Source: Euglena gracilis (Eukaryota). From it: a stretch of 64,000 nucleotides of DNA. Both the position numbers and the translations under genes were made by a program. The stretch covers positions 5,925,693 to 5,989,692 of the forward strand of contig CP154954.1 in the NCBI GenBank assembly GCA_039621445.1, written 5' to 3'. The notes beneath the pieces are model-generated. The model worked only from the letters and a program-made list of their open reading frames with translations. It was not told the DNA's origin and made no database searches. Of the stretch, positions 7 through 49,497 are shown piece by piece (position 1 is the stretch's first letter; each line of letters begins with the position of its first letter).

Positions 7-430
7 NNNNNNNNNNNNNNNNNNNNNNNNNNNNNNNNNNNNNNNNNNNNNNNNNNNNNNNNNNNNNNNNNNNNNNNNNNNNNNNNNNNNNNNNNNNNNN
101 NNNNNNNNNNNNNNNNNNNNNNNNNNNNNNNNNNNNNNNNNNNNNNNNNNNNNNNNNNNNNNNNNNNNNNNNNNNNNNNNNNNNNNNNNNNNNNNNNNNN
201 NNNNNNNNNNNNNNNNNNNNNNNNNNNNNNNNNNNNNNNNNNNNNNNNNNNNNNNNNNNNNNNNNNNNNNNNNNNNNNNNNNNNNNNNNNNNNNNNNNNN
301 NNNNNNNNNNNNNNNNNNNNNNNNNNNNNNNNNNNNNNNNNNNNNNNNNNNNNNNNNNNNNNNNNNNNNNNNNNNNNNNNNNNNNNNNNNNNNNNNNNNN
401 NNNNNNNNNNNNNNNNNNNNNNNNNNNNNN
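7..430. other. Assembly gap (N run)
   Basis: Run of N. Confidence 0.99.
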
Positions 431-432: not shown

Positions 433-3400
433 GGCATACTATGGGTAGTATTCCCACTTCCAAAGGATATACATTTGGTGACACACAAAATGTTCTGTTA
501 CAACTACCAAATTTTCCTCAACGAACACTACGGCCCACACTTCCAAGTGGTCGGAATCGACCTGACATACCCACAAAAATTCGTCGTTTGGTGAACCCAC
601 TGCCACCACAAGTTCCCCGTGGACTTCTGGGGCTTTGGTGTGCGCGGTCGGACAACCGACCGCCCAAACGCACAAAGGGCACAGCCCCACCAACGTGAAT
701 GGGCGGAGGCCCAACAACAACGAAGACTACTTGGACACATCTGCCACAATCCACTCGAAGTCAGGGAAATCGGATACACCAGACGAAACCACCGACAAAT
801 GCTGCTGCACATGCAGACCTTCCAACATAGGGCATGGGTATGCTATGCTCTGGAAATCTACAATTTTCTCAACTCAAAACAACCACTCCCACAAAGAATA
901 CCTCCCTCTTCGAACTGAATGGGACGAAGACGGAAAACGGAAGTACATCAAACGCCTGGTTGGCGAAACCCTCCGACGAAAGGACTTTGCCCCATTTTTC
1001 AGGGGCAAACGTACGTACAAATAAAGATGGGTTGGCCATCCCGATACTGGACTGGCTTCCTCGCGGATCGGGAGGAAACAAATCTGTCGGAGGGCAAAAC
1101 TTCCGTCTGCGACCACGTATAAAACTTGCTGAACCGCAGCCGGTGGAATCCGAAGCGGCGCAGTCTGCATTTGAACAACCCCCAACGGCTGCATCATCTA
1201 CAACGACAACAGATAAAGCAGCAGCGAAGCCCACAACTAAACGCTCAGAAGAACGTTTACCACAACCCCCACCTACACCTGCAATGTCTGTGGAACACAC
1301 TCCCGTACACTTTTCAGACTCTTTGTCCGTTTCCTCTTCTGGGTCATCCAGCGATGAGGAAGTGGAAGAAGGGACGGACAATGAACACAGTACACGCTCC
1401 GTCTCCTCTGCATCCCCGGATTCTGAACACAGAGATGCCAGCGTACAAAATTCTCTAAGGGGCGAAGCGCCAGTTACAATGCCTGGTCAGACAAGACCAC
1501 AAACACCATTACCAGACGTGGAACCCGACGCACTTACAGAACTTCCAGTGGCCGAAGAGCCTACAGCACCTACGATGGCCGAAGTGCCTGTAGACTCTAC
1601 AACGGCTGCAGTGCCTTCGTCAGACACGCTTCCACCCACCTCCGCACGTGCGGAAGGTGACCGAGAAATCACTGACGAAGAAATGGAAGCACTACATGCA
1701 GAGCGTGAACAAATACGACGTGAATACCCCCTCGGTATTCACAGCCGTGGGAATCCAGACCCCGACGACTTCATACTCATACCACCACAAGTCGGACGCG
1801 CTGCAGAACGCGTCCTCGGAAGCGTCCGAAGTGGCATAGCGTCGATGGTTGCAATGGTGCGATCGAGGTCTTCCTCTTCAACGCGAAGTCACCGTGACAC
1901 GGGACTTGACGAAGAACCCACACAAGAAGCTACGGCTTCCACCACAGCACTGGCAGCAGACGCAGCCAGTTCTACTCCTGATGTCCAAACACCTGAAGTG
2001 TTGACAACAACCAAAGCGACTATGGTCGAAGCAACACCACCACATGACCCAACACACGTAGTGGTACACACCCCTGAACAGGTGGTACCGACGGCTCCTG
2101 ACGTACAACCTACTATCGCACCAACTGCCAAACCTGCTCCAAAGTCTCCTGCATAACGCCCCCTCCGCCACAGCGGAAAGAGAAAGGCAGTAAGCCTAAG
2201 GCTAAACTACAGCCTGCGGGAACCGTACAAACCTGCTGAACGACACAACGAGCCAAAATCTGCTCCACCTTGGAGTTGTAACAAATCTGGAAAGCGGGCG
2301 AAGACCCCAGGTGCTACCACACCAGCACCAACGTATACCGAAGTGGCCGGGAAAGCCGGGTCACTTCCACCCTTCGAGGTGGAACTCGAAAAGATACAAC
2401 GTCTGAGACCTCGCAAGAGGAAAACATGCCGGTTGACGATAATGCCGCCCTTTGGCAAGAGGACATTATCTCCAACCTGCCGAGCGTCGAAGAACGCATT
2501 GCCATGATACACTAAGCCCGCGAACGCGGAAACTTATTGAACAAGTGGATTGAACCACTCTTCTTCAACGAACAGAAGTATAACTACTGTGTTCGCCATA
2601 TTCGGCGATTCTACAATGCCAGATCACCAAGAGTGTTTGCCCAATACCTTGGGAAAACATTCCTGTTTCAGAATATGCCGAATGGCCAAATAACTTGGCT
2701 CTGTACTCTTTGTCACAACATTCGTAACAGCATGCCAGCTGTGCATGTCTGTTATGCAGACAACAAACATAAAAAACTTTCAGTACAATGAGTTCGTTCC
2801 AAACACAGCCGCTCTGATTTGCGGTGATTGTCTGCTTGCCTAGAGACAACTGAACAACTTCCGATGGTCGGAAGAAGACAGAGACCGTGACGTACAAGTT
2901 TTCTGTGTCAACTGCTTACACGCAGACATATAGTTGCCCGCAGATGGCGGAAATCTCAAGATCGTACCAGGAAACGAGGACGTTCTGGAAGATTTCCTGA
3001 ATTTCTACAAAACAAAACGACAAATTTACCAGCACAAAAGCTTCAATAAAGCTGAAGCTTTTGACCGCGGCGGAATAGCCTTTGACTTCCAAACTGATTC
3101 CGGCGGAATAAGACTTGCTGTGGAATGTACAAAAGGGCGATTGCTCCTACTCTTCAATGATGACGACTGGAAACGAGTTATTTACCCACTGTTTACAAAG
3201 CCTTCAACGGTTTCTGAAACCACACAACGATGGTTACTACCTGACGACCGACCTGAACGACATGGTTACAAACATTATTCAGAATGTGTTGGCACCATTC
3301 TCATACCACACATAACCCGCTGTGCCTGTGCATCCTGCGCGCACAACGTTGATTTCAACGCTCTGCCTGGAATGCCACCACTGGTACCAGCAAACCATCC

Positions 3401-3856
3401 AAGATGGACGTATTACGTATGGCCCGCAACTTTTCCCAGAGTTTTCTGGGAAAATTTGCAGATTTACCTCCACAAGCGAGCTGAAACGCTCAAAACCGAA
3501 CTTCCCAAGGTAATCCAAGAAGTGAAAAGTTGGGTCTTCCCACGGATCAAGATGGATGATCCTGACAAGGATACCCTAGACTTTCGTCCAACCGAAATGA
3601 CCTTGGCACAAGACCCACACATGGGTGAGTACTTCAAGAAAACGCGCAAACGTTGAGGGTTTCCTACCTCGTACAATCAGCTACAGCTGAGATGGGTGTA
3701 GTCCTACATAATGAGCGAAGTCTCGAGCGTGAATACGCACTTCATCATTGCGTTCAACACCGTTTCAAGACCCTGTGGCAGAATCGCCTTAAGTTCGGTC
3801 GACAACACGTTGATCGCGAAGATTCAAGACTACAAAGACACTACGGTGTCAAGTAA
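433..3856 (+). pseudogene. Degenerate large ORF of unknown function in LTR element A (Cys-containing N-domain, P/T/E/A-rich linker, Cys/Trp-rich C-domain)
   Basis: Frameshifted pieces 433-594, 635-1024, 834-2156, 2537-2791, 2934-3656 and 3653-3856. They align by eye with the minus-strand copy at 7231-10930: WLCTLCH/WLCLVCH, FCVNCL/LCVNCL, QTDSGGIRLA/QIDSGAIRLA, ANHPRWTYYVWPATFPRVFWENLQ/ANHPRINYFIWQATLPRKFWEKLQ. Confidence 0.7.
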
Positions 3857-4039
3857 GACGACGCACAAAGCACAGCATGCGCGCCAGAATTATTGTACGC
3901 TTTGTGCTCCAAACACGGTAACCGTAATTGGGAACCAGACCGTGGTATCCTGGTACTTTCTCCCTGAACCTGGGACTGTGCCTGGCATACCGACTGGCCT
4001 GGTCCAGAAGGGAAATCGGGCAGAACCCTGGGAGGGGGA

Positions 4040-4470
4040 TGTGTACCAGGCAGCCATTCTGCCATGGCACTGTGTACCAGATTCAATGGGCTACGGCCTA
4101 CAATCTAGCTACGGCCGGGCTGTACACAGTGACAGGGTTAAACCATAAGACAAAGAGAGAATCTCAGAGCTAGCGAAAGCTTAGCGACAGTAACTGGTTC
4201 CTAATTCAAGGTTACAGGGTTTGGTGCTTTGCAACTCTCTTTTAGAATTATGAGGACGAAGTCCCATTTGAATAGAAGTTTTAGTTCTTTCTTTTACAAA
4301 GCTCGAAAGAGCAAAAATCACTTTCATATAAGGGACTGCGGTCCCAACAATTCTCTTTGCCTTTGTGCTTTGCAATTAAAAGGGGGAAGGGAAACAAACT
4401 TTACTGTTACTCCCCCCCGGGCTTTTTGGGAGGAAACCTTAAGTACAAAAGCCGGGGTGGGACGTACACC
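4040..4470 (+). repeat. 3' LTR of element A
   Basis: Termini TGTGTACC...GGACGTACAC, preceded by the PPT, about 430 bp. Confidence 0.75.
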
Positions 4471-4524
4471 TTGACCCATCTTTGAGAACAAACAACAACA
4501 TAATAACATTATCTGGTGTCCACC

Positions 4525-5921
4525 TCATCCACCGGTCACTTTAGCGGGTGAAGTCGAGAAGTACCCGCGCCCGGCCACTGGGAAACCCCCCGCTCCTTCC
4601 CCCAGGAAACATCGCCGTGGACAAGTGGACCTCTTACATCCGCCCCAGGTGGTCGTTCCGGAATTTCCTGAAGGGGTATTAGGTGGACTCCCTGCAGGAC
4701 ACGTGGCCAGCCCGGCCGCCTTGGCGGCCGCAGGTAGATGCCTCTTGGCACAGACGGGTGCATGTGACCTTGGCCCCGGGACGGTCTCCCCGGCCACCAC
4801 TGCACCGGCGGCCAGCTCGTCTCCGGACCCCCCTGGACCGGCTGTTATCGCCCAGGCAGTAGGTCAGTGCCCAGCGGCGTTCGCCGCCCCCTTTTTCCCG
4901 CCGGGCTTGCAACTAACTCCTCCGGGTCCTCACCCCGCAATGGTTGCTACCGCGACGGCCCTTACAGGGTTGCCACCCGCTGTCTTGGCCGTCTTCACCC
5001 CGGTACCCTGCCCCCCAGCCAGCACTGACCCAAGCAAGCGGTATGTTTGCGAGTACCCCATCTGCCTGCGAGCACATGAGAGCCGGGGGACACTAATCAC
5101 ACATCTACAGCGTACACCACACTCATTTAAGCCTGCTCTGCGGAGACTACATACGGGACCTACGCGTCTGGTTTTGCCCACACTGCTGCCGGTTGTCACC
5201 GCTCACAGGCTTGTGTGGAGGGAACTCTTGTGCCCTCATCGACCAGGTGAACGCGTTGCTCGACGCGCTCGGGCGATGCGTGACGGTCCTTCCGGCCCGG
5301 AACAACGCGCGCCTCACGAGATTGCGATCGTGGCCACCGCCCCACCCCGGGTGACAGCCGTGCCACTTGAACCAACCTTGGACTCTGCCAGCCAGCCCAC
5401 AGTGCCCAACATTGAGGCCCTGTTCCAACTGCACTGTCCTCTGCTGCGGCACAACCCCAGAGGGGCAAGGACCGCCCTGGGCCATTGCCTGGCTGAACTC
5501 ATTCACCACCTTTTATCTTGATCGACCTGGGAATCGGTTTTTTACCTTTACCCGTTTCTGCCTCCGCGCCGAAACTCGCGGCGGTGCCTCCGAGAGAGCA
5601 CAGAGAGCGCTGCGTGACCTCGTCACCGACCAGGCTCTGCGGTTGCCCACGCTGTCTGTCCCTGCCATTTGGACAGAGCTCTCTGACTGCGAAAGCACCA
5701 GAATGAACCGCATGACACGGAAACGGGAAAGGTCGCCCGATCCTGAGCTTGACCAGCCACCTGCCGGTTGTGACGAACACCTCCTCCGCTCCCTTCGCTC
5801 GCTGGTGACTGAAGGCGCCTTCTCGAAAGCAGCCAAACGCCTTCTCAGCAAGGGGATACACGACCCCCGTTCTGAAGACGTCCTGTCTGCCCTGAGGGCC
5901 CTCCACCCGCAGGGAGCCGGA
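4525..5921 (+). mobile_element. 5' fragment of a CRE-clade (RLE) non-LTR retrotransposon, truncated by the LTR of element B
   Basis: C2H2-like finger CEYPICLRAHESRGTLITHLQRTPH in ORF 4625-5521. Pre-RT motif GAFSKAAKRLLSKG...LSALRALHPQG in ORF 5367-6110, typical of CRE-like RTs. Coding similarity stops at the LTR junction at 5922. Confidence 0.65.
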
Positions 5922-6349
5922 AGTGTACGTCCAAAGATTTCCATTTTCCCCTTTTTGGGACTTTCTGAAAAAGCCTTTCGCTTTCGCCTTGGTGCGCAAC
6001 CTACTTATGGTAGGGAAAAGTCTTTGAAGAAACAAAAAGAGGTTTTTCCCTTTGTCCCCAATTCCTCAAGAGGCAATGCACAATACAAAGACTTCAGAAG
6101 TTTTCTCTGAAGTCAAGTTCATTTGTTTCGAGGGGTTTTCTCTCAGACAAAAGCAATGGTGAAAGTTTGGAAGCTTGACAGTAAAGAATACCACCTGTGG
6201 GGGAAGGAGAGAAAAGTGCTGACGTGTCCAGGGGCCGATCCCAGAATGGTCTGCCACGATCGTACCAGCTGTGGTTTCGACAGCTGGTGCGACCATCACA
6301 GAACCCACTCTGCAGATATCCTACAGAGCTGGGACGTGCCTGGTAAACA
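5922..6349 (-). repeat. 3' LTR of element B
   Basis: Minus strand reads PPT-like GGGAGCAGGA, then TGTTTACCAGGCA ... GGACGTACACT. The upstream sequence is homologous to 30830-30867 and 3996-4039. Confidence 0.72.
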
Positions 6350-7230
6350 TCCTGCTCCCAGGGCTACGCCCGATTTCCTTCATGGACCAGGGATTCCCAG
6401 GTCCAGTCAGGATATCTGACGCTTCCCCGGTGGGGTTCACTTCATACTCCATTTGGTGTCTCTCCTTTCAGCACAGTGGCATCCACCCAAAGCACAAAAA
6501 CACGCAAAAGGTTAGCCGCGTTTCGCGGTTAACTATTAGCCGTTTCGGCTTAGGTGGGGTGTGAAAAGCCCACTGTGGGAAACGGGGCTGGCAGGTTTCC
6601 TGTCAAAGTGTCCCATCCACCCACTTTGCGTGTGCCAAAGGCACGCGGGGTTGGTCAAGCGGTATTCGCTGAAAACCCAAGGGGAGAGGTGTGGAAGTGG
6701 GGGGCCGGCTCCTATCCTGGTCACACCAGGATAGCGCTCCTATGCAGTCATATCAGCACTAGGAAACTAAAGCCTACGTACAGAACCGACTGCCGGCGAC
6801 AGCTTTGCGGGGTGGGAGGAAAGTAGAGAGGAGAGGGGGGCTGGTTTAGGCCAAAACAGACTTTTTGCTTTCTGGCAGCCTTAAGGAGCCTTAGGGCCGA
6901 AAAGTGACAAGTTGGCCTATTATTACGGCGTGTGCGCTGTGTGCTGTGTGTCACTTAGCGGCTTGCCAGGTTTCCCGGCTTCCAAGGTCTTCACAGCAGC
7001 AGCTTCCTCACGACGTGATAAGAGGCGCTTACCTCCTGCAGACGGTTTCCGTCCGCACCGCCAATGTTGGTGGGGGAGGCTCATGGATACCTCCATCCAG
7101 AGCTCGTGACAGACCTGGGTTCATCCCAAGGCTGCTTAGCTGTTTCTGCTATCAGTGTATGCTCCATCAGGGGGTCCAGGCTCCATGCAGGCGATTACCT
7201 TACATGGGGTCTGGTAATGCCTTTTCGGCA

Positions 7231-10200
7231 TTATATCCTTTCGAACAGCCAATAATCATGGCGGGAGTCCAGGGGATCTTCCACGAGCACCATATGAAAT
7301 TGCAGTGGTGGTGGCCTGTCTACGAGCCAGGTTTCTGGCGATTCGTAATCAAAGTCAGGTGCCACCCAGTCCCGAACCCATCCTTCGGGGACTGTGTGTT
7401 TGGTTGCACTCGCTCTTCCCGCGAGGAACCACTGCAGCTTCTCCCAGAATTTCCTGGGCAGAGTAGCTTGCCAGATGAAGTAGTTAATCCGTGGGTGATT
7501 GGCTGACACTTGCGGGGCATTCCCGGGTGGAAGTCAATGGGCATGTGATGTGCACATTCCGCGCGGACTGTATAGGGTCGTAATACGGCCCCAGGCCAGT
7601 CTTTCCAGGTTAACCCGTGGTTTTCGGGTGGCCATTGTGGCAGGCACCAGCGACCATTTTGGTCCTGGGCTTTGAACAGACGGAAAAGTATCTTTTCCCT
7701 GTACGCTGTCTCACAGAGGTAAGGTAATCATACCCCTGCCTCCTCAGCAGCGAGGCGTATCGCCCCACTGTCGATCTGCCACCCACGGGCCATTCCCGTG
7801 TGGCAGTAGTCGTCAAGCTTGAGGTTGGAGTACTTGAAAAATTCCTTGTACTTTTTGTGCAAGGTGGCGTATTCCTCCAGTGGCTTCTGAGCGTTTGGCA
7901 CGATTGCGGGTACTGCGCCTTCCGCAGTGTGCCAGAAGGTACCTCGAAGGCAGTTGACGCAGAGCAGTGGTACATTCGTACCATCTCGCTCCGTGTAGTG
8001 AAAATTGTGCTTGTGGGTCCAACTGTCCACGCACTTGGCGCTTACCAAGGCGGCACAGTTGGGGATATATACATCCTTGTGGAACATTATCCGATCCACA
8101 GGGTTGCGCACGTGGGCGAGGGGTAATCCCAAGTCAGGTGCACTGTTGTACATCCTGTGGCATACGAGGCAAAGCCACACAAAACGGTTTACCGTCGTTT
8201 TTTCGACGAGGAATTCCTCGCCGAAGTGTTGGGCCAAAACGCGTGGAGAATCTGGAATTGTAATAATTCCAGGTAACGGGTCTGATCAAAGGACCATTTT
8301 CGGCCCTGACAGAACAGTGGCTCAATCCATCGATTGAGACATTGATTTGTCCTCAATTTGTGGTCGATCACCATGTACCTGTTCTTCAGGTCGTGAGTCT
8401 CAGGATCATCCTAAGTGATCGCGTTCCAGTCGATGATAACTTCGTCTTCCGAAGGTGTCTCATCCGTGGAGGCGCGGGATTTTCCCTGCCCCTTTGCCTG
8501 TGGTTTCGGCTGTGAGGTTTGCCCATATCCGGATGACGTGACGTGTGTTAATCCTTGTCCCGAGGTTGATCCCCGAGAAGAGGATGCAGCACCCTGGCCG
8601 CCAGCACCACCACCGCCTTTCGGTGGGAACTGGTCACCAGATTTTTTTGTGGGTTTGCAAGGTGCGGCGCCCGGCTTTGATTTGGCCGGGGGCTTCAGGC
8701 TTCCGGTTTCCGGAGTATCCGAGGGCCGCCGCTCGGCGTCGCGCTTGCTTGCTCAGGTGCGTGGTGACGCTTGGGACGGGGGTCTTTTCCCCGACACCGA
8801 GCGTCCGTGACCTTCAGCAGGGGTTTCCCGAGCTGAGGGTCGCCCTACGCGTTCCTCCGCGGCACCCGTGGGTTTCCCAGGGGTAGCCGTGGGGGATGGT
8901 GTGGGTGCAGGCGTGGACGGTGCACTTCGCGCTGGTTGAGCCTGTGGGGGAGGCATGGACGTCAGCTCGGACTGTTTTTCAGGCGCCGGTGTCCGTGTGC
9001 CTTGACGCTTCTGTGCAGTGGTTGTGGTTGTGCCTGTAGGTGCAGGTTCATCCCGTGCCTCTGGTGGCACTGTCGGTGCTGGTACAGGTTCATCCTGTAC
9101 TGGCCCGGTGGGTGTTGTCTCCACTGCCATTTCTGTCTGTTCACCTTCCTTCCGTGTCGCTTCCGACATTGGCGGTGGCGCCGCCGTTGGGGGAGGTTCA
9201 TCCTCCACCATGGCTGCAGTGTCAGGTGTTTCTTCCGCCGGCTGGGCAGTTTCCGCCTCAGCTGTGGAAGAACTGGCCGCAGTGCCACGTGGAGTGACGA
9301 CTGCGATCAGTGACCGTAAACCACCAAGTACGCGTCCATCCAGCGAGGTGCGGCACTCAGGTCCTTCACCTGAAGTGGGCTCTTCCGCTGGCTCCGCTGT
9401 CGACGGGGTTTCCACGGGGACAGCGAGCTTGAGGCGTAATACCTCAGGCGTGTGGGGTACCGTCTCCGGCGGGTTTTCCCGCGTAGGGGTTGGTACGCCT
9501 GTCCTACTCAGTGAGGTTGGTGACGGTGGTACAGGGGTCATTTCACCTGCGGGCGATCCTGGGCGCTGGGCAGTTTCTGCCACAGTGTCCAGCATCACTA
9601 AAGATGGGCTACGGGTTTCCTGTGCCGGAGGTTCCGCTGGCTGAGGTTCATCCTCGGCCATGGGGACCGCTTCCTTCTCCTCCTCCGCTTCCGGAGGGGA
9701 TTCGGTTGTCTGTAGTTGAGCTGCAGAACGCGGATCTTTTCCGCTCCTGTAGCACAATTGTGCATCTGCCAAGCGGTAAAAGCTTATATTTTCACTGCTG
9801 TCAGAGTTGGGCTATGGGGGCGGCCATGACGCTCTTACCCAGCTTCCGGGTGGAGGTTCTGGCTCGTCCTCACTGATCATGCAGAGGTCTTCCCACTGCA
9901 TTCGACGGTTCCAGCTCATGCCGTAAATTTATTCTCCTGTGTCTTCCAGGAAAGCGGGTAGCGGCGGGGCATAATGTGGCTGTTTTTCCACGTTTGCCGC
10001 GAAAAAGTCTTGGAAGTCCTCCCAGATCAGGATATTCCCGAACTGGGTGTCGAGTGCTCCCGGAGACCGATTTCGGCCTCCTGCCAGTCCGGCCGCAGGT
10101 TCATCCTGCGTCGGTCTGGGTCATTCAGTCTGGATCCACCTCGATGTATCCTCGAGGTAGCCACCTCCTGTGGATATCCACATCAGTGGTCATGTATTCC

Positions 10201-10930
10201 AGAGATATAAACCTCCAGGACGTAAGTAGTCCACGCCCTGTGCCAGTATTGTGGCAGCAGAAATATTTTCTGCCGGTGCTGTTTCAGCACATTTCTGTCT
10301 TGCGTTCCGATCTGGGGATTCCGGCACTGATGCAGGAAGAATCTACTGGTCGGCTGGCTGCCGACATTCTCGGCAGTAGGAGGCGGTTAACCGCGTTCTC
10401 CAAAACCCCAGAAGTCAACAATGTGTACTTCTTTGCAAAACCGGCATACCAGTTTGTACCGCTGGGGGTACGCGAGGTCGACGTCCAGGACCTTGCAATC
10501 TGCAAATCCACTTGGACAGCATGTATGGCACGCTGTTCAATGTGAACATTACCGCGGCCTGCGCCTGGAGTTTCTCCGGCAGGGGGTAATATTTCCACTG
10601 GATAACCAGTGCTCCGACGGAATACAGGTGCGTGAAGATTTCCTTCAGCTGTGCGACGAACCTTTCGTCGTCTTCACAAGTATTCATACAGTCGATGTAC
10701 GTCAGACCGTTTCGGTCGGTAAAAATGCCGAAGTTCTGGCAGGGGTATCCCAACCAGAGCCACAGCTCCCAGAAACCGGACATCCGGTCCAGGACGACTT
10801 CATCCGAATGAGGGTATCCCTCAAATGCATGAAGTTAGGCACTGTAGAAAGATCTTTTGCTGTGATCGTACATACGATTATGCACCACTTCGAGCACCTC
10901 TTCCGGTGGTCGGTGTGGTTTTGCTGTTTC
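7231..10930 (-). pseudogene. Second, divergent copy of the large unassigned extra ORF (element B)
   Basis: Pieces 10415-10783, 8753-9772 (P/T/E-rich linker), 7728-8237, 7610-7984 and 7231-7509. N-domain matches copy A: IQWKYYPLPEKLQAQAAVMF vs ILWVVFPLPKDIHLVTHKMF, and CHNTGTGRGLLTSWR vs CRPSNIGHGYAMLWK. Confidence 0.7.
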
Positions 10931-14750: not shown

Positions 14751-14769
14751 GGAGGCACAAACCCGATTG

Positions 14770-18271: not shown

Positions 18272-18682
18272 TGTGTACCAGGCAGGATGACCATGGCACT
18301 GTGCATAGCAGCGGCCTGCAGAATGTACAATGTCATGTTAGATAGTACTATCCCGTGTTCTGCAACACAAATTGCAGAATTAGGAATGGCCTATCCTATC
18401 TCGGATCTGCCTTTCCCTTCACAGGTGGTATTATTTCATTCATGATTTCATTTGCCTGATCAAAGGCAACTTCGATTTGGACACTCCGATTGGAGAACAA
18501 TTGTGGAACCCAAGTTCCAAAATCACACCTGGTTTGCCTTGTGCTCTGCATAAGCCCAAAGACAATAAAAACTAATAGTTAAGTGAAAGACTTTCTTTTT
18601 TTGTTACTCTCCTGGTTCTGTTCCAACGGGAGGGTGTAAGCAGGCCGACAGGCAGTGGGAATAGAGTCAGGGGACGTACACG
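18272..18682 (+). repeat. 5' LTR of element C
   Basis: Direct repeat of 30868-31278, followed immediately by the PBS. Confidence 0.92.
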
Positions 18683-18705
18683 TGGTAGCAGAATAGGTTA
18701 CGAAC
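18683..18705 (+). promoter_or_regulatory. Primer-binding site complementary to initiator tRNA-Met
   Basis: TGGTAGCAGA...GGTTACGAACC resembles the complement of the eukaryotic tRNA-iMet 3' end (TGGTAGCAGAGGATGGTTTCGATCC). Confidence 0.8.
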
Positions 18706-18815
18706 CTACACATACTTCACAAGCAGAAAGACTACCAAGGCGTACACTTGGTAGCATATTCGGTTTCTTTCCTACGCCCCTTCTCCCCCCCCTTCTTACC
18801 AGGTGACTTCAAACA

Positions 18816-21137
18816 GTGAGTGGTGCTGAGCCTACTGGCTACAAAAAATCCACGAGCTGTTTGGAGCCAACTTGTAAGCACGGGTACAAGCTTCAGGAGG
18901 TTCTGGGCAGTATACGCTGCCACATCCTTCTAAGTTTGTTCCCTTGCTTACTTTTTGGGGTTTCTTGTGCTTGTTTCTGCAAAAAAAAAAATATGCACAG
19001 CTCAAGCACCAACACATCAAAAGCTTTGATTAGTTCTTTGAGAAAGTTCGATGAAGATTTGTCGCAGGAGTATATTCTCCAACCCAGGTGTGTGGCCCTA
19101 TATGGGGCAACTCCCAGCTCTATTGATCATTCCCCAACCCCAGTGGTTTCCAGCTCTATTGAGCATCACCCCACCCCAGTGGTTTCCAGCTCTATTGAGC
19201 ATCCCCCCACCCCAGTGGTTTCCAGCTCTATTGAGCACCCCCCCACCCCAGTTTTCAGCTCTATTGAGCATCCACTTACTGTAATTTTCAGCTCTACCGA
19301 GCATTCCCCCACCCTGCTTTCCAGATCTATCGAGCATTCCCCCCACGGCTCTATCGAGCAAACCCCCACCCAATGGGTGCCACACCTAACGGTGCCAAGC
19401 TCTATCGAGCAACCCTCCACAGTGGCCATCTCTATCGAGCAATTACCTCCAACCCCCAGCGCTATAGAGCATTCCCCCACCGTTCCCAGCTCTATCGAGC
19501 ATTCCAACACCCAATGGGTGCAACACCTAACGGTATCAAGCTCCATCGAGCATTTCCTCATCCAGGAGTTTCCACACCTAACGGTGTTTGATTTAGGCGA
19601 AAACCCCGCTGCGCAATGGGTGCAACGCCTATCGGCGTGTGGCTCTATCGAGCAACCCATCGCCCAGTGTGGTTATCAGCCTTTGCTGCAAAGTCAGGCA
19701 TCTTGTTGTACTTCTCCGCATCAGGATGTCGCAACGGTGCCTACAGGCACAATTAACAAACAACCCACTGATGTGGTTCACTGCATGCTGGCATGTCCTC
19801 CAACGGAGGACACACCCGCACAAAACTCTCAGAGACTGAGCGAAACTTTGTGTTGGATGCAATCCAGCAATGATGCGGCATTTTTGCACATGCAACATAG
19901 TTTGCAAAATTTGTTTGCAAAAGTGGAGCCAATAACGGCACTTTTTGAGCACAAAAATCCTGATATTGGAGCTTTTGTTACCCTGGAGCGGTTCGATACC
20001 TTAGCTGCTGCATTCCAGGAAGCGCAACAGCACATTATGCAACTGAGCCGTGCATCGGCAAATTTTCGCCATATGCTCACCGGACCTGGTGAAGGTTTCG
20101 CTTCCAGCACTTATGTGCAGCAATTGGAGGAAAGACTGTCCCGGTTGGAGCGAAAGTCATGTAGGTGTGGTGAAAATTCTGCTGATATAACAAGTTTTTA
20201 CGCCCATATCGCGAATATCGCAAGCAGGCAGGATGCTTACCACCAACGGTGGCAGAACAATATTGTTGACATCCAAACCGCAATTGCGGAGTTGCAGAAC
20301 TGCAGTGCGGTACCATGTTCACATAATTTAGAATTTCAGCGAATTTCTGCAGATGTGCGTGATGAAAATCACCAAGTCAGGAAAAAATTTTGTGACGGTC
20401 CGATACGGACCGAGGAAACAGTGAATCAGCAAGTCAAAAACTTGCAAAAAGATTTCTCAGCGCTATCCGCGCAAATTTTGGTGTTTTTGGAACAACCAAA
20501 GGCTGAAAACGTGCGGAATTCGCAAAATACCCCTCCTTGCAAACCATCTCCACAACTGCAGTCTATATCCGAAGCGGTGCACACTCTAGCTGTGCGACTA
20601 CGGGAATTGGAAAGTGGTTTTGGAAAAATTTCGCAAGATTTCCGGCCTTTTTCTGACAAAATTACTCTTCTGGACGATATGTCCAAACACCGCTGGCGTA
20701 TTAAGCGTTTGCAGGAAGATATTGGTGCAATAACCGATCATCTGAAAATTCTCGATGATTTGGAGAAAAATTTTCGTGACTTTACAGAAAATTTGGATCA
20801 AGTACACGCACAATTGCGGTTTTTACAACAAAAACCTGATATGGGTTTTGTAGGCACACTTGCCGCAGATTCCAGCTCCAAAAGCGCTAATAGCGCACCT
20901 GTGGCAGAGCCCATTGGCACAATGCCACAAAATTACGATTCTGCTCATGCAGTAGTCCCTCCCCCAACGGTACCAATCCCAATGGACCATTTTTTGGATG
21001 ATGCGGTTGGTTTTCAGGAGAAAGCCAAGCGAAACCCTCAAAGGAATCGAAAAATTTGGGAATATAAACTTTGTCGCGGTATGAGCTGCACTCCCGCACA
21101 TGGTATTGATCCTGAGATGCATCAGCATCACCATTAG
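18816..21137 (+). CDS. Element C ORF1, N-terminal part (SSIEH tandem repeats, long coiled coil)
   Basis: 773-codon open frame after the PBS with heptad-rich segments. True start codon uncertain. Confidence 0.6.
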   Translation: MSGAEPTGYKKSTSCLEPTCKHGYKLQEVLGSIRCHILLSLFPCLLFGVSCACFCKKKNMHSSSTNTSKALISSLRKFDEDLSQEYILQPRCVALYGATPSSIDHSPTPVVSSSIEHHPTPVVSSSIEHPPTPVVSSSIEHPPTPVFSSIEHPLTVIFSSTEHSPTLLSRSIEHSPHGSIEQTPTQWVPHLTVPSSIEQPSTVAISIEQLPPTPSAIEHSPTVPSSIEHSNTQWVQHLTVSSSIEHFLIQEFPHLTVFDLGENPAAQWVQRLSACGSIEQPIAQCGYQPLLQSQASCCTSPHQDVATVPTGTINKQPTDVVHCMLACPPTEDTPAQNSQRLSETLCWMQSSNDAAFLHMQHSLQNLFAKVEPITALFEHKNPDIGAFVTLERFDTLAAAFQEAQQHIMQLSRASANFRHMLTGPGEGFASSTYVQQLEERLSRLERKSCRCGENSADITSFYAHIANIASRQDAYHQRWQNNIVDIQTAIAELQNCSAVPCSHNLEFQRISADVRDENHQVRKKFCDGPIRTEETVNQQVKNLQKDFSALSAQILVFLEQPKAENVRNSQNTPPCKPSPQLQSISEAVHTLAVRLRELESGFGKISQDFRPFSDKITLLDDMSKHRWRIKRLQEDIGAITDHLKILDDLEKNFRDFTENLDQVHAQLRFLQQKPDMGFVGTLAADSSSKSANSAPVAEPIGTMPQNYDSAHAVVPPPTVPIPMDHFLDDAVGFQEKAKRNPQRNRKIWEYKLCRGMSCTPAHGIDPEMHQHHH
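19113..19655 (+). repeat. Degenerate 24-33-bp tandem repeat with core GCTCTATYGAGCA (SSIEH/Q peptide)
   Basis: More than a dozen copies are visible in DNA and translation. Confidence 0.85.
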
Positions 21138-21266
21138 CGAATTCGCGATTCACCAAGTTTGCAAGGTACCTATGGTACACCAAGTGGAATATTGAATGAG
21201 CATTCGCAAAATACAGCCTAAAGTACACTTGGTGCAACCACCGAGGTACCCTCGCATGGTGCGGTT

Positions 21267-22406
21267 TTGCGCCCAGGCCAATCCTCATTGAATACCACCG
21301 AAGGGCCTTGGGAGTCTCAGAAAGATCTCAAAGGAATCATCTCTATCGCGAAAAAGGTGAAGCCCCAATGGGATGGTGACCCCACAAAGTGGAAACAGTT
21401 TTGGTGTGATTGGGAATATTATTGGGATCTGAAAGGATCAACCCATAACGGAAATCCGGAGGTGATCAAAATGGAATTCATAGATTGTCTACCAAAAGAC
21501 GAAAAGGAACGCGCCAGACAATTGGTCATTCGCGGGCGCATTTCTTTTCAGGATTTGGTTGAGCAATATGCTTCATCATGTTCCAGTTTGGTTTCCAGAA
21601 TCACTCTGGAGAAAAAATGGCGGCAATATGCCACCCATGACCGAAAATGGAGGTCGATAGACCTATGGTACTCAAAATGGCTTTCTTTGGCAGCCGAAGT
21701 AGACGAGTTAGGCGAAACCCAAATGAAAAAGCAATTTGACGCAGTATTACTGCACTTTCTACCCAAACTCATCAAAGAAATTCACCGCGAGGAACTCACA
21801 GGACATATTTTGACGCTCGATGAGCGATGGAACTATGTTTCCAAACAGTTGAGGCTATCACAGCTTCTGGGACAAATCCAGTCGGCTTATACGAGCCACC
21901 CCACATCAGGAATACCCACTATACAAGTCAGTTCTGTGAAAAAAGCGTCACGCTTATCACATACCGGTATGGCGGAATCCAAATCGTACAATTCGTGCTC
22001 TTCAGAAGAATTTTCGGACAAATTGTGCTTTTTGTGCAACAAAAAGGGTCATATATCTTGCCATTGTCCAAATCCTGCAGCGCGAAAGCGCAACACAAGC
22101 CCAAAAGGATCAGCCTCATCATGTAGTTCTCGTTTTTCACAAAATGCGCCTTCACAAAATTCAAAATATCGATCACGATCCACATGCTCACTGTGCCGAT
22201 CCACCAAACACCCTTCACCCAAATGTCGCTATGCGACTCCTCCCCACCCAAGCCATGGCCATCGCGATATGACTCGCAGTTCAAAAGATCATACTTCAGC
22301 CAAAAGGCATAAGGTAGGTCAACGAACAACCTCTATTGAGGATTATCACCCGGCTTCGGGCAGGGAGGGGGCTGATACCCCACGTAATAAAAGGGATCAT
22401 CCCTAA
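21267..22406 (+). CDS. gag: Gag capsid/nucleocapsid with CCHC zinc knuckle
   Basis: PQWDGDPTKWKQFW capsid-like motif and CFLCNKKGHISCHC (CX2CX4HX4C). Confidence 0.85.
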   Translation: MRPGQSSLNTTEGPWESQKDLKGIISIAKKVKPQWDGDPTKWKQFWCDWEYYWDLKGSTHNGNPEVIKMEFIDCLPKDEKERARQLVIRGRISFQDLVEQYASSCSSLVSRITLEKKWRQYATHDRKWRSIDLWYSKWLSLAAEVDELGETQMKKQFDAVLLHFLPKLIKEIHREELTGHILTLDERWNYVSKQLRLSQLLGQIQSAYTSHPTSGIPTIQVSSVKKASRLSHTGMAESKSYNSCSSEEFSDKLCFLCNKKGHISCHCPNPAARKRNTSPKGSASSCSSRFSQNAPSQNSKYRSRSTCSLCRSTKHPSPKCRYATPPHPSHGHRDMTRSSKDHTSAKRHKVGQRTTSIEDYHPASGREGADTPRNKRDHP

Positions 22407-23239
22407 TTTCGTGATCATAAATTCAGAGACGTATATGCGTCAAGAAAGTCAATGGCTGATATGGCCACCGGTTCGTATTTTGAGTAAAGACACCCGAAAC
22501 CCAGGGATGCGGACTACAGAGGCTACTAGAAAGGAGGTGACAGGAGTCATGACCCTAGTCATCCCCTGCCCAGTATCCTTTCTGGTCATCGTTCCAGGAT
22601 TTTCCCGTGTCCCCACTCAAAATTCTGCCAAACATTCGACATATAGCCAGTTTTGTGTTTCCGGTTGTGGTGCATCATGGGATACCCCGTGAATGTCCAT
22701 GTGGTTGAGTGGATTCCCGCTCCAAGAATGCACACAACACAACAAAATTCTGCCCCCCTCCCTCAAACTCCCACTAGTCATCACTTTTACAAACCGTTTT
22801 CGATGACAGCAATACCGTTTTCTACAACACCAACACCGTTTTCAACCCAGGGGTAAAGAGAAAGTGCCCCCCCTACCCACCGCATATCCACAAACGTTCC
22901 ACATGCGGTAGGGGTAACAAGTAGCTTAACCCCCCAACGTTTCAATGGGTTCCAAGACGAAAGCCCCAAGGCCTGAAATTCGAATGGTGTCGAGTAGTCG
23001 CCCAGCTGCTTTCATTTTTCGTTTTCCACCAGGTTTGTCGATTGCAGACAATCCTGAACACCCCCCGCAGCTCAAATTCACATACAATTTTTCTTACACA
23101 CTCCACCCCCCCAGACCAACACGCGCGACAAGGACAACTACTCAGCACCTCCCCCCAAGGTGTGCACTCTAGGAGAAATTTCCACACAACCAACAACCAA
23201 ACATAAAAGGAAATAACTGAAACCAAACTAACCACCAAC

Positions 23240-23635
23240 ACCCGCGCCTATGGCGCCCCAGCCACTCAAGCGCCTATGGCACCCACCACCCCCCGCGCCT
23301 TTGGCAGCTTCCTGCGCATATTGCGCAAAGTGCGTATAGCACAGACGCTGCGCCTATGGCGCCACCCACCCTCGCGCATAGCGCAAATCTTGCGCATAAT
23401 GTCCCCCCCCCGCGCTATATGGCGCCCCCAACCACCGCGCCTATGTCGCTAACACCCCCGCGCATATTGCGCTCCCCACGCGCATAGCGCTCATCGCGTG
23501 CATATTGTTTTGCACGCCGCGCATAGCGCACACCTCCCCACCGCGCATATTGCGCAGCCCGCAAACAGCCCCCCCCACAAGATGCGCCCCCCCCACCCCC
23601 ACCCGTGCATAGCGCAAATCTCGCACAATTGCGTA
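23240..23635. repeat. GCGCCTATGGCGC / GCGCATAGCGC palindromic minisatellite
   Basis: Many short self-complementary units separated by C-rich spacers. Confidence 0.75.
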
Positions 23636-24235
23636 TATCTTACAAATGGGTGTCTGTCTGCCCAACCCAACCATCTTCTTTTGGGAATAAGTCCCAAAGA
23701 TGTTTGTGTACATATTTCACAATGGCACTTTTGTTGTTGGTTTGCAAACCACATGCTCAAAATGCAGATTTGGTTTACTTAAGCAACAAAAGTAGCCATC
23801 CCCCCTTCTTTGACCACGAACTTGTTGGTCAAATTGACGAACACCAAAGGTGTTTTGATCATTAAAGCACACAATTGCGCTCACTTCAAAGTTATTTGCA
23901 AAAACACAAGGTGTGTGATAAGTTTTTGGGATACATTGCAAATACTGCATTTTTCCCGTGAACTTGCACAGCTTTGTGAAGAACAGCTATTTTGTGAACA
24001 AAATGGCCTTTTTCTTATTGCAGAAGTGAATCCCGATAGGGAAATAAGTTGAATTCCTTGAGAAAATCTGCAACATAGTTGCCCCCCCCAAAAAAAGGAA
24101 AAAAATTCCTTCAAACATGCAATCTTGTGGACTTAACCACTTAGCCTTTAGGTCTATGTGACCAATACACCCTATGATGTGCAAGGCCTATTGGCCATTA
24201 CCCACGTGGTCCGTGGTCCATGGGTCCATAGGACC

Positions 24236-25297
24236 AATTTGCACAAAATGCAAGGACCAAAAGGACCAAAGGTCCACAAGTCCATATTTTCTATATTATG
24301 AAGTGAAAAGTCCATAGGACCTCAAAAAATGGCACAAAAAGCCATATTACATGGCTGAAAGTGGCTGAATTGGCCAAAACAGGCCAAATAGGCTTTTTTC
24401 ATGCACATTTGCATATGTGTCACTTTGGCATAGCCCAAAACCACCACAAAAGCTTCAAAATTTCTGGCACCTCGTACCATGAGGTTTTGACTGCATGTAT
24501 TAGTGCCTATGAGATAGGAACCAAAAGTTCTCTTTCTAGAATAAATTATGGAAGCTTATAGCAAAAGCTCACTCACACAGGCAAAAGATCAAAGAAGTAT
24601 CTCAGCACCCGTAGCTGGCCGATAGGCCATGTTACCCCTCATTCGAAAGCTCGTTCGATGAGCCGTCCAGCGGTGCTAACAGGTCGCTGTAACTCTGCAC
24701 GGTACTCTTATTTGAGGAGATCGTGAAAAATTGAATTAAGCCCAGCCAATCCAGCCAAAAAGTTTGCAAAAAAATTTGCACAAAATGCAAGGACCAAAAG
24801 GACCAAAGGTCCACAAGTCCATATTTTCTATATTATGAAGTGAAAAGTCCATAGGACCTCAAAAAATGGCACAAAAAGCCATATTACATGGCTGAAAGTG
24901 GCTGAATTGGCCAAAACAGGCCAAATAGGCTTTTTTCATGCACATTTGCATATGTGTCACTTTGGCATAGCCCAAAACCACCACAAAAGCTTCAAAATTT
25001 CTGGCACCTCGTACCATGAGGTTTTGACTGCATGTATTAGTGCCTATGAGATAGGAACCAAAAGTTCTCTTTCTAGAATAAATTATGGAAGCTTATAGCA
25101 AAAGCTCACTCACACAGGCAAAAGATCAAAGAAGTATCTCAGCACCCGTAGCTGGCCGATAGGCCATGTTACCCCTCATTCGAAAGCTCGTTCGATGAGC
25201 CGTCCAGCGGTGCTAACAGGTCGCTGTAACTCTGCACGGTACTCTTATTTGAGGAGATCGTGAAAAATTGAATTAAGCCCAGCCAATCCAGCCAAAA
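24236..25297. repeat. Near-perfect tandem duplication, 537-bp period
   Basis: 24236-24760 repeats at 24773-25297; identical ORFs at 24361 and 24898. Confidence 0.95.
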
Positions 25298-25315
25298 GCC
25301 AAATTTTAGGCCAGA

Positions 25316-27166
25316 ATCGCCTGCCGCGTCACGTCCGCCCTTTCCCCGAGAACCACACCCCGGACTGGGAGGACCGATTGAAGGAAGCCATCCGTCGCTT
25401 CCCACGGGGATCGGCGCCGGGGCCATCTGGGTTGCGACCAAGCCACCTCCAAGACTGCCTGCGGAGACCAGGTCGGGGAGCAAGGCTGATCACTGCCCTC
25501 GCACTGCTGACTCAAGCCTTGGTGGACGGCCAGGTACCGCCCCACCACGCCGCGGCCTGGTGCTGTGCGAACCTAACGCCGCTCCGCAAAAAGGATAACA
25601 AGGTACGTCCGGTGGCGGTTGGGGAAACAATCCGTCGCTTGGTGGGGAAAGCCTTGCTCCAGACACCAAACGCCAGATCCTAGGTCGCAACCCTCGCCCC
25701 TACCCAAGTTGGGGTTGGGGTACGAAACGCGGCTGAGGCCGTCGCATTAGGTATGTAACACCTGGTCATTCAGCTGGGGGACACATCGCCCTGGGTATCT
25801 CTCCAGGTGGACTTCTCCAATGCGTTCAACACGGTGGACCGAGGGGCGATCCTGACGCACCGCCAGCTTGTTCAATTTTCTGCGATTCGCGTACAGTGGG
25901 CACGTTCCCTTGTTCTGTGGTGGTCGCTCGATCCTGTCACAGAGAGGCACCCACCAGGGCTGCCCATTGGGCCCCATAGGGTTCGCTCTCGCGCTGCAGC
26001 CTCTACTGGAACAGATCACCAAAGATGGTCAGTTGCTGTGGAACAGCTGGTACTTGGACGACGGCTTGCTGGTCGGGACCCCAGACCGGATTGAGCACTG
26101 CATTCGTTTCTTGATGCAAGAGTCTCATCGAATAGGGCTCGGCCTCAACCTGCAGAAGTGCGTCATGTGGGGCCCGAGAGCCAGGAGTACGCCGAGTGGT
26201 GAGTTGATGCAAGTCGTCCCTTGGACCCCAGGGGAAGGCATCACCGTCCTGGGCATCCCAGTTGACCACCCAGCGTCTACGGACACCACACAGACGGCGT
26301 GGGAGGTTGCAGCCGCCAAAATCGAGAAGGCCGCGTCCACCATCACGTCCGTCACCGACGCTCAGGTAGCGCACCAGTGGTGGAATCACGAGTTGGGCAA
26401 GAAGACGATGGATGACCTGGTGGACCAGGCGCGGCCCCGGGACAAGAACCGCCTCCTTGAACAGGCCACAGGTTTCGGGCATGGTTGGATGGCAGCAACC
26501 CCCTCAAACAACTCCCACACCACTTTCTCCAGCGAAGAGTACACCTTGGGGTTGAAGTGGTGGCTGGGTCTCCCGGTGCTGAACGACGTCAGCCAACCAT
26601 GCACGGGATGCAACCAGCCCCTGGACAAGGAAGGTGACCACCTCCTTTGCTGTCGCAGGAATAACTTCGCCACCCGCCACAACGCTGTTCAGGACGCACT
26701 GTTCCAAACCTTGTCCAACAGCGGACAGCGGGTGCAGAAGGAGGTTTCCCTGCCAACGGCCCGAGATAGCCACCTCCGCCCGGCCGATCTCCTCCTAGAC
26801 TGCTGGTCTGACGGGAAGCCGACAGCGCTGGATGTCACCGTCTGCCACGGATGGCAGGCGACTGAACACACTGCCACCCGCGAACGGTGGAGATCCTTCC
26901 TGAAGAGAAGGGAGGAGGCCAAAAAGCAGAAGTACAACATCCCATGCCAGCAAGCAGGCTGGGGCTTCACGCCGTTCGCCCTGGGAACGTGGGCGGGCAT
27001 GGGGCCCGAGACAGCCAAAACCCTGAGCCGCGTGGCGAAACGCGCCTCGTCCTGGCAACAGGGGGCGGAACGAGAATTAAAGGAGGCGGATATTTACCAG
27101 AACGTCGCAATCGCCCTATTACGCGAAGTCTTCCATCTCCTGCAACCCAAGCACATTCTCCGATAA
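25316..27166 (+). pseudogene. Reverse transcriptase plus CCHC finger plus restriction-like endonuclease (disrupted, internally deleted)
   Basis: RT motifs GSAPGPSG, VRPVAVGE, DFSNAFN, QGCPLGP, WYLDDG. Finger CTGC...GDHLLCC...RHNAVQD. RLE motifs RPADLLL, ALDVTV, KKQKY. In-frame stops at 25681 and about 25757, a frameshift near 25860, and an apparent deletion at AQVAH|QWW. Confidence 0.92.
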
Positions 27167-27492
27167 AACAACAACAACAACAACAACCCACAAAGCACAC
27201 ACACACACACACACACACACAACCACGACCCACCGCCACTCCCCCCGTCAAGCCACGTACCGCCGCCCTGCCCCCGACCCCTCTATACTCCAGCACTGCC
27301 GTTCCCCTCAGCTCCCCGCTCCCCCTCGCCCCTCTACCCTCGCGCAACGTATTGAAGGTGGGCCTAGCCCATTTTCCACCCGCCGTCCTATACCCCAGCA
27401 GTAAATTATCATAACCGCCAGCGGACCTTCAAATCCAGTAGGCTGTGCCACTGGTCGGTGGATTCGGTTCGCCCCACCACCGGGAGTTGACC
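25316..27492 (+). mobile_element. 5'-truncated CRE-clade non-LTR retrotransposon with 12-bp TSD
   Basis: TSD TTTTAGGCCAGA at 25304-25315 and 27493-27504, enclosing RT and RLE coding sequence. Confidence 0.88.
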
Positions 27493-28399
27493 TTTTAGGC
27501 CAGATCTTGTACGATCGTGTACCAGACTTGCAAATCAGCCTGAAAGGCTTCTATACTGTTTCCCACATCGTTTCTGATGGCTAATTACCTTTGGTTAACA
27601 GATTGGCTAATGGCCATTTTTTAGTACCTTTGGCAGCATTCTGCCCATTACCCCTTCTGTATGGGCTATAAGGCCTCGTACAGTTCAGAGGGCTATAGCC
27701 CACAATTTGGAGTCATTTCGACTCACTAGAATGATTTTTAGGAGCACTTATGTGCAAATTTTGATTTAAATCATTTATTTTCTGCAATTTTTTGGTTATT
27801 TTTCCCTATTCTGGCACTCATATCACTAATGGAAGTCACCATGAGGCACTATGCCAGAGTGGAATGCAAAGCGATATGCTGATAATGGCAATTTTTCCTT
27901 TGTTCAACATGTCATAGACATGTTTTACTTGTATTTTGAGGTGTATTTTGCTTTTTTGCGATATTTTTGGGTGATGTGGTGTTATGAGTCACCCAAATCC
28001 CAAAATCTATACAACAGCAAACATGCAGTGTAATTGGACACTCTCAGCAAGCACTATGTGCACTTGGCACATATTTTCAGTCTTAAATGACTCAAAATGC
28101 AACAAAGTTGCACTTTTGGTTACAAAAATGCAACTCTCGACGCAGAATCTGCATTTCTGCTCTAAATCCTGATAGGGATTTCCCTAAAAATCCGATGAAA
28201 GTCAGTATTTCTCAGTGGCATAGTCATTAATGATGAGATTTTGTCATATTTGCAGTATTTTTTCCTGCTTATCACACCAACAGCATTCTTGCCCCCCCCC
28301 GCTTCATTCAGTGGGATCCCCTTACCGATATAATTCGGAGGACCCAATGGTCATCATTTGCAACACCAATGGTGTCATTCTGCAAGGTTTATAAGAACC

Positions 28400-30857: not shown

Positions 30858-30867
30858 GGGAGGGGGA
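30858..30867 (+). promoter_or_regulatory. Polypurine tract
   Basis: GGGAGGGGGA immediately before the 3' LTR; identical at 4030-4039. Confidence 0.85.
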
Positions 30868-31278
30868 TGTGTACCAGGCAGCATGAACATGGCACTGTGC
30901 ATAGCAGCAGCCTGCAGAATGTACAATGTCATGTTAGATAGTACTATCCCATGTTCTGCAACACAAATTGCAGAATTAGGAATGGCCTATCCTATCTCGG
31001 ATCTGCCTTTCCCTTCACAGGTGGTATTATTTCATTCATGATTTCATTTGCCGGATCAAAGGCAACTTCGATTTCGACACTCCGATTGGAGAACAATTGT
31101 GGAACAGAAGTTCCAAAATCACACCTGGTTTGCCTTGTGCTCTGCATAAGCCCAAAGGCAATAAAAACTAATATTTAAGTGAAAGACTTTCTTTTTTTGT
31201 TACTCTCCTGGTTCTGTTCCCACGGGAGGGTGTAAGTAGGCCGACAGGCAGTGGGAATAGAGTCAGGGGACGTACACT
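30868..31278 (+). repeat. 3' LTR of element C
   Basis: Direct repeat of 18272-18682. Confidence 0.92.
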
Positions 31279-48999: not shown

Positions 49000-49445
<446 letters not shown>

Positions 49446-49497
49446 ACACATCCAGACCAGTGATGGGCCCCCGATTGCAGCAGCACATTGCAAATCG

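Follow-up and report, generated by a model that had tools for sequence, protein, structure and literature searches.

Analysis of a 64,000 nt window of contig CP154954.1 (positions 5,925,693 to 5,989,692 of the forward strand), a eukaryotic stretch rich in repeats with a GC content of 0.40–0.58 in 2-kb bins, revealed that the same large reading frame is present twice, as an opposite-orientation pair of decayed copies, copy A on the plus strand and copy B on the minus strand. In both copies this frame is the last coding sequence ahead of an untranslated spacer, a polypurine tract (PPT) and a 3' long terminal repeat (LTR), and the protein belongs to no described family. On balance we lean towards the reading that A and B are decayed copies of LTR elements with a conserved orphan frame, whose product would be either an accessory protein or an extension of Pol and probably a Zn-dependent binder of nucleic acid or chromatin. 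A preliminary description of the window had placed two elements at 433-3856 (+) and 7231-10930 (-), each with a frameshifted open reading frame (ORF) of more than 1000 codons upstream of the PPT and 3' LTR. This placement was borne out, the end given for A taking in ~200 nt of the spacer, and a PPT with a complete LTR was located 3' of both copies.

Copy A covers 433-3653 (+) with a terminal TGA at 3654-3656 and consists of 1,074 codons, found in four stretches and three reading frames with 3 frameshifts and 5 internal stops. Copy B extends over about 10917-7234 (-) and closes with TAA at 7233-7231 (1,227 codons, 4 frameshifts and 8 internal stops). Comparison of the two proteins by tblastx gave 14 high-scoring segment pairs (HSPs), all on the same relative strand and colinear (summed E 6.85e-47), and blastp of the cleanest pieces gave 41% identity over 87 aa (E 2e-17) and 32% over 62 aa (E 9e-09), whereas blastn of the DNA with word size 7 found a single match of 30 nt (E 0.007), in agreement with the earlier remark that the DNA is barely alignable. 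Such a strong colinear protein match over DNA that can no longer be aligned requires a long period of purifying selection. Two internal TAG codons of A stand opposite Trp in B and one TGA of B stands opposite Arg in A, pairings that are consistent with decay by transitions. Point mutations together with 1-nt indels have inactivated both copies in the window. When all six-frame pieces of the window were searched with local hidden Markov models (HMMs) only A and B were returned and no third copy.

Over 339 HSP codons the proportion of nonsynonymous differences (pN) between A and B was 0.39 and that of synonymous differences (pS) 0.82, the latter saturated and the former biased downwards since the HSPs were picked by protein similarity. 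Identity by codon position 1, 2 and 3 was 58, 64 and 34%. These values fit the earlier suggestion of an old gene kept under selection. In the favoured reading A and B would belong to two subfamilies that diverged deeply within a single, very abundant lineage of LTR retrotransposons, and selection would have kept the protein while the subfamilies diverged to 30–40% identity.

The 3' context was defined with the help of a third LTR element in the window, element C, which is complete and of textbook structure, with LTRs of 410 nt that are 97% identical to each other, the flank ATTTC on both sides (offset by 1 nt) and a gag-like ORF with two CX2CX4HX4C (CCHC) knuckles. The sequence following its 5' LTR can be read as complementary to a tRNA 3' end, T-arm included, and may thus be taken as a tRNA-like primer-binding site (PBS). 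In copy A the PPT GGGAGGGGGA and the LTR start directly after it, TGTGTACCAGGCAG, at 4030-4053 are identical to 30858-30881 of element C, and a degenerate version of the same PPT and LTR start, the latter reading TGTTTACCAGGCAC, is found in copy B at 6359-6336. The LTR end is GGACGTACAC, and the termini TGT(G/T)TACCAGG...GACGTACAC are common to all four full LTRs. Since PPT, LTR start, LTR end and, for B, part of the spacer are shared with element C, A and B are the 3' portions of elements of C's LTR lineage, both showing the 3' LTR preceded by a PPT that is typical of LTR retrotransposons. For B no 5' LTR, PBS or target-site duplication of its own element was found in the window, these features being seen only in the comparator C. 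The features of the three elements are collected in Table 1.

Table 1. Coordinates of copies A and B, their 3' regions and the comparator element C in the window.
Feature	Position	Strand	Remarks
N run (assembly gap)	7..430	.	N run 7-430; removes 5' part of A
A N-domain, partial	433..915	+	FPLP, VDFWGFGVRG, HRAW..Y.LE; internal TGA 592; tblastx to B 10603-10207
A linker	916..2351	+	Acidic, P/T/S/E/A-rich; conserved patch 1809-1931 only; TAA 2154
A acidic patch, NKWIEPLF helix region, Cys/His module	2352..2933	+	WLCTLCH ... AALICGDC ... CVNCL; frameshifts, TAA 2513, TAG 2841, TAG 2931
A C-domain	2934..3656	+	Uninterrupted 240 codons (DSGGIRLAVE, PGMPP, ANHPR...FWENLQ) and terminal TGA 3654-3656
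A untranslated spacer	3657..4029	+	ORF end to PPT, 373 nt
A PPT	4030..4039	+	GGGAGGGGGA
A 3' LTR, complete	4040..4469	+	430 nt, TGTGTACCAGG...GGGACGTACAC
B 3' LTR, complete	5923..6349	-	427 nt, TGTTTACCAGG...GGACGTACAC
B PPT, degenerate	6350..6359	-	GGGAGCAGGA
B untranslated spacer	6360..7230	-	871 nt; 6485-6952 68.7% identical to element C 30269-30710
B C-domain	7231..7925	-	DSGAIRLAAE, ANHPR...FWEKLQ, VEDP; terminal TAA 7233-7231; TGA 7730, frameshift near 7521
B acidic patch, NRWIEPLF, Cys/His module	7926..8413	-	WLCLVCH ... AALVSAKC ... CVNCL; frameshift near 8270
B linker and basic patch	8414..10185	-	P/T/S/E/A-rich; several internal stops, frameshift near 10053
B N-domain	10186..10834	-	YPLP, VDFWGFGERG, HRAW..Y.LE; frameshift near 10540, TAA 10389
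B opening codons	10835..10917	-	Includes 'chromodomain-like' start; breakpoint to different upstream unit at 10917
Element C	18272..31277	+	Comparator defining the family; LTRs, PBS, PPT, gag; without protein homologue

The protein consists of a His/Cys/Trp-rich N-domain, a long linker, a Cys/His module and a C-domain. The N-domain comprises ~220 aa in B (10834-10186), of which A keeps the last 160 aa (433-915), and motifs common to both are F/YPLP, DL.YPQ, VDFWGFG.RG and HRAW..Y.LE.Y. It is followed by a linker of ~450–550 aa dominated by P, T, S, E and A with a net charge of -23 in A and -21 in B, presumably disordered, and by a K/R-rich patch (net +20 in A 2157-2504) and a short acidic patch before the module. 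The linker cannot be aligned between A and B except for a patch of ~40 aa (A 1809-1931, B 9334-9212). The motifs WLCxxCH, CVNCL, DSGxIRLA, ANHPR...W.AT.PR.FWE.LQ and FPLP/YPLP, listed in the preliminary description, were all recovered in both copies. Its N-domain motif CxxxxxGxG is better written VDFWGFGxRG, and its account of the linker as P/T/E/A-rich and non-conserved stands except for the one ~40-aa patch.

The Cys/His module of ~95 aa contains three CxxC pairs and a conserved His, in the order CxxC-H, H, (C)AAL.(C)xxC, CVNC in A, in B and in a database relative, P0004, described below. Five Cys and two His of the possible ligands are present in all three of these sequences and three more Cys in two of the three. 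The conservation of these five Cys and two His across three lineages makes Zn binding plausible, and there are ligands enough to hold two Zn ions in the manner of a cross-brace. After the module follows a helical-looking stretch and a D.G..RL..E motif, whose D and E are found in six of six sequences (A, B and P0001–P0004), and a Pro/Trp-rich C-terminal block PGMPPQV.ANHPR.N..IWPA.LPR.FW..LQ with 20 columns invariant among four sequences, the overall identity to A of the sequences in this alignment being 39–40%. A, B and P0002 all end within ~10 residues after a (V/A)(E/Q)DP...D motif, and this common end is a natural C-terminus.

An exhaustive phmmer search with the 240-aa C-domain of A against 1.84 billion representative sequences revealed three proteins: P0001, a Euglena gracilis transcript product from EukProt (123 aa, E 1.5e-17, 39% identical), and the metagenome fragments P0002 (ENA) and P0003 (JGI). 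Each of the three matches A as well as B, and no other part of the window is matched. As the one relative of named origin, P0001 makes a euglenid the probable host, an assignment to species being tentative at 39% identity. A fourth, P0004 (ENA), was obtained by profile search and overlaps P0002 at 99% identity. It is an uninterrupted metagenome ORF of 380 aa in which the linker end, the acidic patch, the Cys module and the D...E region follow one another as in A and B, so an open version of this architecture does exist outside the window. In total the protein searches covered 1.84 and 5.8 billion proteins and gave these four relatives, for none of which a Pfam family was found. No longer homologue of the C-domain was identified among 692 candidates, nor any relative of the N-domain by profile among 209, and no locus with the C-terminal block was seen in 163 metagenome-contig or 25 viral-contig stretches. 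The DNA pattern of PPT and LTR gave two loci in metagenome contigs, both chance matches without protein similarity.

Sequence closely similar to A and to B is repeated to a very high degree. In DNA run X1, 20,203 contig pieces match at at least 95% identity and 7,078 at at least 99%, and the summed word depth per bin, which is not a copy number, was 90,000–580,000 over A and B compared to 560–850 over 4778-5743, while single clean contigs of the same run have a depth of about 70–100. Five indel variants were found inside the frames of A and B, and three of these rejoin the flanking frames in silico (+A after 2351, +C after 7521 and +G after 10053), those at 893 and 8249 leaving the frames not rejoined. 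Longer open frames probably occur in other copies of the family.

These data also bear on the origin of the frame, which could instead be a host gene captured by transduplication and carried as passive cargo with no role for the element, P0001–P0004 then being host genes. The relatives are indeed short fragments whose genomic context is not visible and one of them, P0001, is a transcript. Against this, frame, domain order, C-terminus and the place ahead of the PPT have been kept across subfamilies with saturated synonymous divergence, which needs long retention inside the elements, and DNA at least 95% identical to both copies has a summed depth hundreds of times that of the neighbouring stretch. 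We therefore regard host capture as quite unlikely.

Pfam scans matched no pol, env (envelope) or other known family in A and B, in accordance with the earlier view that the protein looks like neither pol nor a classical env. This applied to the pieces of both copies as plain ORFs and when read through with X at the stops, the read-through versions giving no match even at E ≤ 10. PDB sequences, searched with two profiles and also with three individual sequences, yielded best E values of 0.11–0.3, judged to be chance, as was a match to the TIR domain of TLR2 (E 0.3). A resemblance of the N-domain to DAM/DNMT methyltransferases through the FxGxG-like VDFWGFG was considered and rejected, having no HMM support; no adenine or cytosine methyltransferase profile of Pfam matched A or B pieces or P0001–P0004. 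Integrase HHCC and DDE patterns were likewise rejected by eye as unfit in spacing. The start of copy B had been described as weakly chromodomain-like. This was not upheld, as 11212-10418 read through gave no Pfam match and 10915-10706 no PDB sequence match at E ≤ 10; the segment directly follows the breakpoint at 10917 and the resemblance by eye is a lead only.

The position of the frame, last ahead of the PPT and 3' LTR, is all that recommends an envelope-like or cell-to-cell movement protein of the errantivirus or Athila type. In the true-frame pieces no hydrophobic segment of transmembrane strength was found (Kyte-Doolittle 19-residue maximum 1.16), as the preliminary description had also noted, and no env family of Pfam was matched. 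A long acidic linker and a Cys/His module are found instead, and the envelope-like interpretation is in our view largely refuted, with the faintest of chances left to it.

Language-model look-alikes of the Cys module were Zn-finger and RING clusters with scores of 0.79–0.83, which is chance level, and the look-alikes of the C-domain were restriction-endonuclease clusters (NgoPII, NspV, NgoBV and PvuII) with 0.86–0.88. The latter raises the question whether the C-domain has enzymatic activity, most plausibly as a divergent nuclease of the PD-(D/E)XK type with the invariant D...E at its centre, which would supply or supplement the DNA cutting of the element. All Pfam-bearing look-alikes were restriction endonucleases within this score range, nine of the ten best named ones share the family or clan of the best, and the D and E of D.G..RL..E are the residues found in all six sequences. 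The scores are however below the lead threshold of 0.9 and the recognition value of 2167 is below 2300. The Lys of (D/E)xK is not conserved, being near the site only in A and P0001, and neither Pfam, PDB nor a fold model supports the assignment, so that a nuclease appears improbable.

When searching for gag and pol, none of 150 six-frame ORF pieces (≥75 aa, 431-25572) matched any Pfam family at E ≤ 1e-3, and the protease (PR), reverse transcriptase (RT), RNase H (RH) and integrase (IN) motifs that had been reported missing were thus not found in this interval either. Upstream of A the sequence is hidden by the N run 7-430. Upstream of B, RNA reads and an RNA-run contig agree with the window from 11368 as far as 10917, past which they diverge into other sequence, and the summed depth of the DNA run falls from ~204,000 (10574-11056) to 11,000–33,000 (11057-13471). 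The divergence of the reads together with the drop in depth indicates a change of unit at 10917, with a different repeat upstream of B. No 5' LTR adjoins the B unit, and the minus-strand LTR fragment at 14895 is flanked differently (GTGGG compared to TTCCG). The preliminary description had called the protein 'extra' to pol and placed it in the 'env position'. This could not be sustained, as pol is found in neither copy, the upstream of A being a gap and that of B a different unit past 10917; an extra protein in the env position was a reasonable guess from position which no copy in the window shows.

The unit upstream of B, 10917-13930 (-), contains a frame of ~1,170 codons (13930-11216), a single frame with seven in-frame stops and no frameshift, with a helical region at 11968-11216. 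Its summed depth is about ten times lower than that of B. It is matched at at least 95% identity by RNA reads and by an RNA-run contig, and no Pfam match was found. Possibly the unit represents the 5' region (ORF0/gag) of a further LTR family.

Element C has no Ty3-type pol. The sole RT inside it is LINE-like (long interspersed nuclear element) and situated at 25264-27163 (RVT_1, E 6.9e-8); it may have entered by nested insertion or may be an authentic LINE-type RT of an LTR element. After this RT follow CxxC...HxxxCC and an RPAD...D.T motif, which we take to be restriction-like-endonuclease LINE features. Another ORF of element C encodes 776 aa, with tandem peptide repeats of the SSIEH type and an extended helical region. 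A perfect (100%) tandem duplication of 525 nt (24236-24760 and 24773-25297) borders the LINE-like RT on its 5' side and may have arisen either in assembly or by duplication in the very recent past.

The missing pol can be read in two further ways. The first is that A and B are non-autonomous elements without a pol of their own, mobilised in trans, the protein then being their main or only product with a structural or RNA-packaging function. The complete lack of PR, RT, RH and IN among the 150 pieces, the absence of a Ty3-type pol from element C with its LINE-like RT only, and the very high summed depth, typical of such derivatives, would all suit this. On the other hand, the upstream of A is hidden by the gap, and with the change of unit at 10917 the absence of pol from B may reflect deletion or rearrangement; moreover, the protein has neither CCHC knuckles nor detectable gag-like features and C has a separate gag with two knuckles. 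Altogether this explanation is unlikely, though deserving to be kept in mind. The second is that the lineage has no Ty3-type pol at all and that the orphan, with its two-Zn module and nuclease-like D...E, serves as the element's own DNA-targeting or integration factor together with the LINE-like RT. We consider this very improbable; if true, it would constitute a new replication module for LTR-bounded retroelements.

The favoured reading, decayed LTR elements with a conserved orphan frame, has to be weighed against several observations, and the following speak against it. Element C has no homologue of the A/B protein, though LTR termini and PPT are shared, showing that the protein is not universal in the LTR lineage. 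Neither copy keeps gag, pol or a 5' LTR, and a role as accessory to pol is accordingly putative. RNA reads are also few: on 14.5 kb 79 RNA reads were found in run X21 and 32 in run X24 (~5–6% of each run sampled), nearly all on the unit upstream of 10917 and few on the A and B frames. AlphaFold2 gave a mean predicted local distance difference test (pLDDT) score of 37.5 for the C-domain (alignment of 7 rows) and 33.6 for the Cys module (4 rows), values that make the models meaningless and leave no fold to compare. The proposed Zn binding, nuclear location and nucleic-acid binding are suggested by composition and ligand patterns, and the downward bias of pN described above weakens the measure of constraint.

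With these reservations, we infer for the protein a mode of action as a non-membrane, nuclear, Zn-dependent binder of nucleic acid or chromatin. Whether translated as the C-terminal tail of Pol or from a third ORF of its own, it would work on behalf of the element, possibly by tethering or escorting the replication or integration complex or by handling host chromatin. Anti-silencing or movement roles, as proposed earlier, are speculation.

LTR elements of the Ty3/gypsy type with an additional 3' frame are known, both as the env-like ORFs of errantiviruses and Athila elements and as other 'ORF3' elements. Like these, A and B have a large, lineage-conserved additional frame placed last before the PPT and 3' LTR, but in contrast to errantiviruses and Athila their protein has no transmembrane or signal features and no env similarity and instead has the Cys/His module and an acidic linker of 450–550 aa. 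Non-autonomous LTR elements of the large retrotransposon derivative (LARD) or internally deleted type resemble A and B in being abundant, in keeping LTR and PPT and in having no pol to be seen; they are usually without a long conserved frame, whereas the frame of A and B exceeds 1,000 codons and is conserved across subfamilies. The Cys/His module can be compared with the cross-brace fingers of RING and PHD domains, with which it shares three CxxC and a His, about eight potential ligands within ~95 aa, but its spacing is atypical compared to the RING/PHD consensus, no Pfam match was obtained and the RING/C1 look-alikes are at chance level. The kind of element is thus known, an LTR element with a conserved 3' frame or Pol extension, and the protein family is an orphan, no description of this protein having been found in the literature.

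In Euglena gracilis, a recent preprint describes EpiLTR/DAM-LTR elements, LTR elements with chromodomain, DAM and DNMT, and an odd diversity of RTs including LINE-like RTs within LTR structures (bioRxiv 10.64898/2026.05.21.726589). The latter fits the LINE-like RT of element C. No DAM, DNMT or chromodomain HMM matches A and B pieces or P0001–P0004, so that compared to the EpiLTR proteins the present one is a different, unassigned protein. It joins other recent indications that unusual additional modules accumulate in the LTR elements of euglenids (bioRxiv 10.64898/2026.05.21.726589). LTR elements make up about one fifth to one third of the 2.4-Gb genome of Euglena gracilis (PMC11252322).

The proteins of the LTR elements of E. 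gracilis are almost undescribed. If the window comes from E. gracilis or a close relative, the orphan would be a large and conserved protein encoded within a repeat that ranks among the most abundant of this model alga. It is a candidate for a lineage-specific way in which a retroelement finds or tolerates host chromatin. With its signature annotators can mask a large class of repeats for which present libraries have no classification.

Between the two 3' LTRs lies a stretch, 4470-5922, with far lower summed depth and no Pfam match. It contains an ORF with a C2H2-like motif and an ...LRALHPQG... segment resembling the N-terminal part of a LINE ORF, and the two LTR elements apparently inserted into this stretch or next to it. 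Further along the window a full LTR at 14362-14750 (+), 81–83% identical to those of element C, adjoins the inverted first 139 nt of another LTR (14757-14895, -), and this junction at 14362-14895 is the scar of nested or rearranged insertions. No tRNA genes were found in the window. Long (CA)n/(TG)n microsatellites at 48900-49650 and 58400-58500 give rise to spurious Cys/Val or Thr/His 'ORFs' of 180–240 aa, and other dispersed repeats with 93–95% identity, unrelated to the LTR family, pair 15798-16132 with 33796-34130 and 47148-47338 with 50504-50690.

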